From positions 1-11,833 of IMG/VR virus record IMGVR_UViG_2778261064_000021: a stretch of DNA of 11,833 nucleotides. One strand, written 5' to 3'. The stretch comes from a virus (taxonomy: Duplodnaviria; Heunggongvirae; Uroviricota; Caudoviricetes). Position 1 is the stretch's first letter. Each line of letters opens with the position of its first letter. Made by a program: the position numbers and the translations under genes. The notes beneath the pieces were generated by a model. The model did no database searches, was not told the DNA's origin, and saw only the letters and a list, made by a program, of their open reading frames with translations. Shown one piece after another: positions 10,711 through 10,875 of this stretch.

Positions 10711-10735
10711 AAACCTCGATTTGAGGAGACCGGAA
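10711..10735. repeat. Copy 1 of a 25-bp imperfect direct repeat (aaacctcgatttgaggagaccggaa) with an internal near-palindrome
   Basis: Matches 10851-10875 at 22 of 25 positions; internal cctcRatttgagg is (near-)palindromic. Confidence 0.6.
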
Positions 10736-10850
10736 CGTCTACATAGCTGCATCACCGTAATGATGATTTGGCCCACCAGCAACCATAACGATTTCCGTTA
10801 CAGTTGATGTGCTTTTTTGCTGGTAAGGCGTAATCCGTTGATTGTTCCAC

Positions 10851-10875
10851 AAACCTCAATTTGAGGAAGCCGGAA
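10851..10875. repeat. Copy 2 of the 25-bp direct repeat (aaacctcaatttgaggaagccggaa); internal 14-bp perfect palindrome cctcaaatttgagg
   Basis: Read directly from the sequence; 140 bp downstream of copy 1. Confidence 0.6.

Follow-up and report, generated by a model that had tools for sequence, protein, structure and literature searches.

The two short direct repeats near the right end of this island belong to units in which a palindrome stands at a fixed distance from an IHF consensus, an arrangement that temperate phages carry inside their roi genes. Judging from these sequence comparisons, we give a probability of about 0.55 to the reading that the units are free-standing copies of a Roi box and an IHF box, which would be bound by the Roi protein of a helper phage together with IHF. 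The window, by which we mean the whole 11,833-nucleotide stretch of viral DNA analyzed, contains a phage-satellite-like island of about 10.7 kb with hpt on its right at 11297. The genes of the island and the elements of the repeat region are these:

1-1227, gene for a P4-type tyrosine integrase
Further island genes: AlpA-like regulator, DUF4222, D5-type primase-helicase, SSB
Packaging and capsid genes: lambda E-like major capsid protein, D-like decoration protein, Nu1-like small terminase (9517-10101)
10367..10651, plus strand, gene for a 94-aa protein, phrog_1561 (PHROG match, E = 1.8e-47)
10668..10689, between the last gene and unit 1, hairpin AAAGCCC-N6-GGGCTTT, read from the sequence, weak bidirectional terminator-like
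10691..10735, minus strand, unit 1: IHF consensus, palindrome and TTCCGG flank; contains the 25-mer 10711-10735
10691-10703, minus strand, unit 1 IHF consensus TATCAGCAGGTTA
10714-10726, unit 1 palindrome CCTCAAATCGAGG, with one mismatch
10770..10847, between units 1 and 2, a 78-nt block identical in five islands of three types (BLAST)
10831..10875, minus strand, unit 2: IHF consensus, palindrome and TTCCGG flank; contains the 25-mer 10851-10875
10831-10843, minus strand, unit 2 IHF consensus AATCAACGGATTA
10854-10866, unit 2 palindrome CCTCAAATTGAGG, perfect

The repeats, at 10711-10735 and 10851-10875, share 22 of 25 bases and start 140 bp apart, and their likeness runs on leftwards to span 62 nt at 71% identity. 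When copy 1 was used to search the window with up to 3 mismatches allowed, exactly 2 sites were returned, the repeats themselves, and not one match came from 200 dinucleotide-preserving shuffles. Each repeat has a palindromic core, which in repeat 1 (10714-10726, CCTCGATTTGAGG) contains a single G/T mismatch at the fifth pair and in repeat 2 (10854-10866, CCTCAATTTGAGG) is a perfect 13-bp palindrome. Both repeats lie between the end of the last island gene at 10651 and the start of hpt at 11297, and no reading frame was open through the region in all compared islands. The original prediction, which had described two 25-mers with palindromic cores in non-coding DNA between the last island ORF and hpt, is thus borne out as a description.

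The 25-mers are parts of units of about 45 bp, which on the minus strand have the layout TTCCGG-N3-[13-bp palindrome]-N10-[WATCARNNNNTTR], with palindromes of class CCTCRAWTTGAGG in the window. In unit 1, 17 bp separate the palindrome center (10720) from the W of the IHF box (10703), and in unit 2 the distance from palindrome center to IHF box is 17.0 bp. By chance, a palindrome with an IHF consensus at 17 bp is expected at a mean of 0.036 units per shuffled window.

We searched the repeat region with BLAST against 2.3 Gb of phage DNA. Outside cos, its sole phage match was to vB_EcoS_phi330 (51 nt, 86%, E = 1e-6), in the segment that encodes the N-terminal part of an annotated anti-repressor, a protein with a Phage_pRha domain followed by KilAC/ANT. 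A roi fragment that holds the unit matches 67 phage records, among them HK620, HK75, HK633 and many Stx phages, and where these are annotated the product is called Roi, DNA-binding protein or Ant. The unit occupies roughly nt 125-165 of roi in lambdoid and Stx phages, and across 80 IMG/VR roi loci the segment exists as two alleles, each with CCTCAAATTGAGG and an IHF consensus. By local blastn, every island unit maps to one place in roi and nowhere else in the gene (nt 272-318 of the compared fragments, with unit 1 at 272-301). The 25-mers therefore represent, almost base for base, the palindrome part of this roi segment on the opposite strand. The match is closest in unit 2, where 10851-10874 is identical to roi allele b (24/24 nt) and 10838-10874 is 92% identical to phi330 roi (34/37 nt); unit 1 (10705-10734) matches both roi allele b and a Klebsiella phage roi at about 22/23 nt.

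Neither blastn-short nor Pfam found roi sequence in the island beyond the units of about 45 nt, and we found no Rha/Roi/ANT-domain protein encoded in it. The minus-strand reading of unit 1, TFRSPQIEVSENISRLG, parallels VIRLPQIEVSERINNLG of Roi, but a stop codon precedes it. We rejected a whole roi pseudogene, which a hand alignment (TSIE, TI..LA upstream) had seemed to indicate, since it was unsupported by blastn-short and Pfam. By their position the units are not autogenous sites, as they lie outside any roi gene and in no conserved open frame.

The 17-bp offset between palindrome and IHF box is common to both window units, the units of related islands, and the roi genes of phi330 and HK022, each of which has one IHF consensus, at nt 153, with the palindrome center 17 bp upstream. 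It is also kept in nearly all of about 230 IMG/VR roi loci, where the peptide I-N-x-L-G and the reading frame could account in part for the conserved box and spacing. Within this phage sample, which comprises 33 distinct variants, the palindrome class follows the recognition helix predicted for the gene product, and the IHF box stays constant. The predicted helices and their palindromes pair as follows:

Helix KRHDNVKRTIE[T/M]L with palindrome CCTCAA[A/T]TTGAGG
Helix SRHDKVKQSIERL with palindrome CCCC(C)AATGG(G/T)GG
Helix SRHSNVKVSIDRL with palindrome CTGCATTGCAG

None of the roughly 230 loci combined a helix with the palindrome class of another, and a few carried single-base variants within a class. 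At homologous codons, P22 rha has CGCA-N4-TGCG and phi80 rha has CGCAA-N2-TTGCG. The window palindromes (CCTCRAWTTGAGG) belong to the class paired with the predicted recognition helix KRHDNVKRTIETL. Co-variation of helix and palindrome, together with a fixed IHF offset, is what an autogenous operator would look like, and the most plausible role for the palindrome inside roi is as an operator bound by the dimer of the Roi protein that the gene itself encodes. As a fallback, the original prediction had allowed that both repeats might be sites for a dimeric regulator, and it is this regulator-site reading that homology to roi, protein-DNA co-variation and the IHF consensus 17 bp away support.

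A precedent for such an arrangement comes from HK022, whose Roi protein reportedly binds a site in its own gene near an IHF site, with IHF said to stabilize the binding. The HK022 roi gene carries a palindrome and an IHF consensus at the 17-bp offset (CTGCATTGCAG, roi nt 131-141, plus AATCAATGATTTA) at the same gene position, and the homologous segment of HK620/Stx-type roi alleles is nearly identical to the window units. The phage element differs in being single and lying within the coding sequence of its presumed binder, whereas the satellite units number two in the window and up to four in other islands, are non-coding, are oriented against the satellite genes, and occur in an island with no Roi of its own. 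The reference for this site is Clerget & Boccard 1996 (J Bacteriol 178:4077), whose title is cited in PMC3430580. Our text searches of the literature returned no paper describing a Roi site or linking satellites or PICIs with Roi/Rha sites.

The family also includes the rha products of P22 and phi80, its founding members, which inhibit phage growth in IHF-deficient hosts; the phi80 record carries the annotation 'DNA synthesis inhibition in IHF- hosts'. These proteins share the Phage_pRha N-terminal domain family, and their genes have an inverted repeat at homologous codons that in P22 is followed by an IHF consensus. The sister satellite L119 has a unit identical to the phi80 repeat, CGCAATTTTGCG. 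The window differs in having only the roi-type palindrome, and phi80 lacks a full IHF consensus at that place in the gene. Rha/Roi proteins are very common in temperate phages and have been tied to IHF-dependent growth since the 1990s, and yet we know of no clear function for them so far.

The array region recurs at the integrase-distal end of different E. coli satellites, which differ in integrase, att site, replication proteins and packaging modules:

hpt islands, with the array directly after the 94-aa gene
allC capsid-forming islands (HK97-type capsid, portal, HNH, TerS/TerL), with the array directly after the 94-aa gene
tRNA-Pro/yejO islands, with the array further downstream in STEC367, where two genes lie between

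In the related satellites examined, STEC367 apart, the 94-aa gene thus stands just upstream of the units. Islands contain one to four units, and that of E. coli U90 has up to four with different palindromes, including the additional units CAGCCAACGGCTG and TCGCCAGCGGCGA. Across islands the palindrome of repeat 2 changes yet stays palindromic (CCTCAATTTGAGG, CCCCCATTGGGG(G/A), CCACCATCGGTGG); template switching at quasi-palindromes could mimic compensatory change. Three of the island classes have an exact counterpart in phages: CCTCAAATTGAGG is the HK620/Stx-type roi palindrome, CCCCAATGGGG the Stx2_14744-type roi palindrome, and CGCAATTTTGCG, from L119, a satellite of the same type as the window, the phi80 rha palindrome. 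E. coli PICIs are documented to use phage phi80 as a helper (PMC6739421). The classes CAGCCGTTGGCTG and TCGCCGCTGGCGA had no counterpart in the phage samples compared. Several island copies are imperfect or chimeric (CCCCCATTGGTGG, CCACCATTGATGG), which, together with the mismatch in unit 1, suggests relaxed constraint; an imperfect palindrome also occurs in 27 intact phage genes.

Substitutions in the 13-nt IHF box of island copies fall only in the four N positions, a modest signal (P about 0.03 for unit 2) obtained with copies anchored independently of the IHF motif. The 78-nt block between the units (10770-10847) has no phage match, no Rfam match and no protein explanation. Its flanks are 85-95% identical across islands, and conservation near unit 2 is partly by construction, since loci L009-L025 were collected by an exact 20-mer in the block next to that unit. 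When genome contigs were scanned for a 20-mer of the conserved block, a single MAG matched, and it was unrelated. The block itself contains nested inverted repeats (CCAGCAA...TTGCTGG and TAACG-ATTTC-CGTTA) and a T6 run.

Between the island of the window and that of U90, identity is 99% over 1-2844 (int) and 97% over 10690-11833, and the capsid modules are only 77% identical. The replication modules differ altogether, with a D5-type primase-helicase at 2845-6390 of the window and a RepA-family helicase at 6832-9453 of the U90 locus (L001). These differences point to strong modular mosaicism. At 7228-10101 the window encodes its own major capsid, decoration and small terminase proteins, without portal, protease or large terminase, a gene set intermediate between classical PICIs and capsid-forming PICIs. 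Directly downstream of nu1, at 10128-10321, lies a complete lambda-like cos that is collinear with the reverse-complemented lambda cos and with the Gifsy-1 cos:

10128-10143, R1-like site
10170-10185, R2-like site
10225-10240, R3-like site
10283-10294, divergent cosN-like site TATGGCTACCCC
10315-10321, cosQ-like site AGGACCC

The island cos is inverted relative to the lambda arrangement, with the R1-like site nearest the nu1 stop, and packaging would therefore go leftwards through nu1. We rejected cos as an explanation for the 25-mers, as the real cos is 390-550 bp away from them and they resemble no R site.

The original prediction took the repeats for possible attachment sites, one being the attR core and the other a relic, and they are indeed direct repeats near the right end of the island, accompanied by IHF sites of the kind typical of attP arms. 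We mapped the attachment site in an alignment of the unoccupied gcd-hpt region of K-12, the two U90 junctions and the window:

11297..11315, plus strand, attR core: the first 19 nt of hpt
11200..11241, plus strand, candidate integrase arm-type repeats GTGTATCGAT / GTATATCATT / GTGTATCACTT

The core common to K-12 attB, both U90 junctions (attL and attR) and the window is ATGAAACATA[C/T]TGTAGAAG, with one C/T difference (L001 3793-3825 and 14600-14618; 632-650 in the island-free K-12 locus, L002). The island thus inserts at the very beginning of hpt, whose first 19 nt form the core, and reconstitutes the gene start; the island boundary is to be corrected to that point. The junction at 11297 lies 421 bp and 561 bp to the right of where the two repeats end. 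A matching 25-mer, which had been predicted for the other end of the island, was absent from the left junction of U90, where the palindrome has one copy in 28.6 kb, at the right end, and the comparison with an empty locus showed the core at the start of hpt and no palindrome match in K-12. The units also accompany unrelated integrases and att sites (allC, tRNA-Pro/yejO), with some 400 to 900 bp between them and the neighboring chromosomal gene, and with no int-proximal copy in U90 we rejected them as arm-type sites too. A different motif, GTGTATCAC(TT)/GTATATCA, is common to both arms, with two to three copies on each side of the att core; in U90 it occurs twice between the attL core and int (GGTGTATCACTTGGTATATCACTT, L001 3944-3975). 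These GTGTATCAC repeats are likely to be the integrase arm-type sites, fitting better than the 25-mers, and an IHF consensus (AATCAGTGGGTTA, 11276-11288) abuts the att core. Given this evidence, the units are not the att core, and an att-related role for them as relic or arm sites is scarcely credible to us.

The native gcd-hpt intergenic region and hpt promoter stay at the left junction, about 10.7 kb away, so that the expression of hpt must depend either on sequence carried by the island or on read-through. Upstream of hpt, the DNA of the island has a loose likeness to the native leader (AATTTGTTTTTAA...ATCA..GGTTA).

Among the other explanations, the one that we take most seriously, while judging it unlikely, is that the units are neutral scars of recombination with helper roi or rha genes, or mere crossover homologies, with no binding function in the satellite. 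This would account for the identity of units with phage gene segments, for the palindromes that are imperfect or seem to mix two classes, and for the high mosaicism of the satellites, whose ends are 97-99% identical between the window and U90 while the replication module is different. Units derived from at least three phage gene classes, however, all represent the same 45 nt or so of a gene of about 720 nt, multi-unit arrays recur at one position in different satellite types, and the specified IHF positions are invariant among island copies even though they are no longer coding. That the same small segment is found in several alleles, in arrays and in unlike satellites makes neutral decay of a captured gene hard to accept. 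An improbable alternative is that the units act as RNA stem-loops at the 3' end of a late operon (as terminator, insulator or REP-like stabilizer) or as ssDNA hairpins. Here the position of the array just downstream of the last gene would fit, as would palindromes that change in sequence and keep their symmetry, a two-tier fold (outer UUUCGG/CCGGAA or UUCCAG/CUGGAA, inner 5-6-bp helix), and a 356-nt region that folds better than its shuffles (z = -5.1 on the plus strand, -3.7 on the minus strand). Yet the inner stems are short and close on loops of 3 nt, the palindromes lack a following T-run on either strand, a terminator scan called none of the units, and an Rfam 15 match is absent. The G-U evidence for a strand is contradictory, with unit 1 favoring plus and other variants minus, and an RNA role would not predict that palindromes track the recognition helix inside phage coding regions. 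The plus-strand MFE fold joins the two palindromes by long-range pairing, which is not general because the two differ in other islands.

We see even less chance that the units are operators for a protein of the satellite itself, such as the 94-aa protein or a 214-aa repressor-like one, rather than for helper Roi. The 94-aa gene does precede the array, with a stop codon that shares bases with a unit's IHF box in most islands. Its product, however, is 80-100% conserved while the palindromes vary from island to island and inside single islands, it lacks a Pfam domain and any DNA-binding domain match, its AF2 model (three helices, low confidence, pLDDT 60) is uninformative, and the palindrome classes match phage Roi/Rha classes instead. 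The 936 homologs of phrog_1561 are all labeled hypothetical and come mostly from E. coli, Shigella, Salmonella and Citrobacter. We also considered and rejected several further identities for the repeats. Replication iterons are not expected to be shared in the way that unit 1 is, by D5-type (window), RepA-family (U90) and 'DNA primase family protein' (allC) islands. Promoter and terminator scans were at chance level, with no call on the units, and 9400-11833 gave only three chance-level eukaryotic matches in Rfam 15 (E of at least 1.1). On the minus strand, the frame of a 52-aa protein is interrupted by a TAG codon in L021 and the islands of allC type, a roi-like frame has a conserved TGA, and a 34- or 21-aa ORF (MTNMIAPSPENG...) is present, but outside the units. 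Inspection by eye alone showed no convincing likeness to Xer/dif, Ter, DnaA-box or oriT sequences.

The retained arrays of about 45-nt units and their class matches favor binding by helper Roi and host IHF. Under this reading, the satellite would have copied a cis-element that normally lies within the 5' coding part of roi, a gene of the Rha/antirepressor family, in lambdoid, HK022-like and Stx phages, where IHF bound 17 bp away would bend the DNA and stabilize the Roi-operator complex. In the satellite, the units form a direct-repeat array outside any roi gene, just past the last gene. Since the island encodes no Rha/Roi/ANT protein, a helper phage would have to supply the binder; when a helper expresses a cognate Roi of the KRHDNVKRTIETL class, Roi and host IHF would assemble on the units, and the satellite could then sense the helper or soak up its protein. 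We infer the binding of Roi and IHF from sequence, and the purpose of that binding, as sensor or sink, is speculative. Tentatively, we raise the possibility that the arrays serve as decoys or sensors in which each unit is cognate to the Rha/Roi protein of a different helper, which it would detect or titrate; as an account of function this is more doubtful than not.

The E. coli datA locus, in which DnaA boxes and IHF make up a titration site whose function was shown by experiment, offers a partial parallel. Both have clustered protein boxes with IHF bending, lie off any obviously controlled promoter, and have a proposed role in sequestering a regulator, but datA acts on a host protein, whereas the putative target of the satellite would be a helper-phage protein. 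Short repeated protein sites interspersed with IHF sites are also found in lambda cosB (R sites and IHF I1) and in attP arms (Int/Xis/IHF), of neither of which the 25-mers are part, with the island cos at 10128-10321 and the att core and likely arms at 11200-11315. Satellites are known to interact with helpers by way of proteins of their own that bind helper proteins (Stl and its inducers, Rpp and TerS, Sid/Psu and the capsid) or by way of cos or pac sites held in common. If our reading is true, satellite copies of the operator of a helper regulator would amount to a DNA-based reading or draining of helper function, and a decoy or sensor array would be a mode of satellite-helper cross-talk not described so far. 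The co-variation of helix and palindrome also makes the operator specificity of the Rha/Roi family directly testable, which would give a handle on this family.

Several smaller features surround the array. The hairpin between the last gene and unit 1 (10668..10689) was not called in the terminator scan, and satellite L132 has the same AAAGCCC-N6-GGGCTTT hairpin after one of its units. Beyond unit 2, on its right, are two long hairpins, CAGATTCTGAATGGTGA-AAA-TCACCAGGAATCTG at 10893-10926 and GGTCGCACC-N12-GGTGCGATC at 10944-10973, both of which are conserved in hpt- and yejO-type islands. The window and STEC367 differ by two substitutions, both synonymous, in a small 34-aa ORF, MTNMIAPSPENGATSIEEMPIQIPGDFHHSESGG, on the minus strand of 10879-10983; in other islands the ORF is a 21-aa variant that keeps its first 12 residues. 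This ORF might be a real micro-protein or a leader peptide. In sister islands, a hairpin lies upstream of unit 1 (ACTACGAAATTTTCGTAGT; 13930-13975 in L001 and about 12945-12975 in L006 and L007), and its 3' arm varies between CGTAG, CGCAG and CACAG. With these variants, only the minus-strand form of the hairpin stays paired, through G-U, a hint of minus-strand transcription in the array region.
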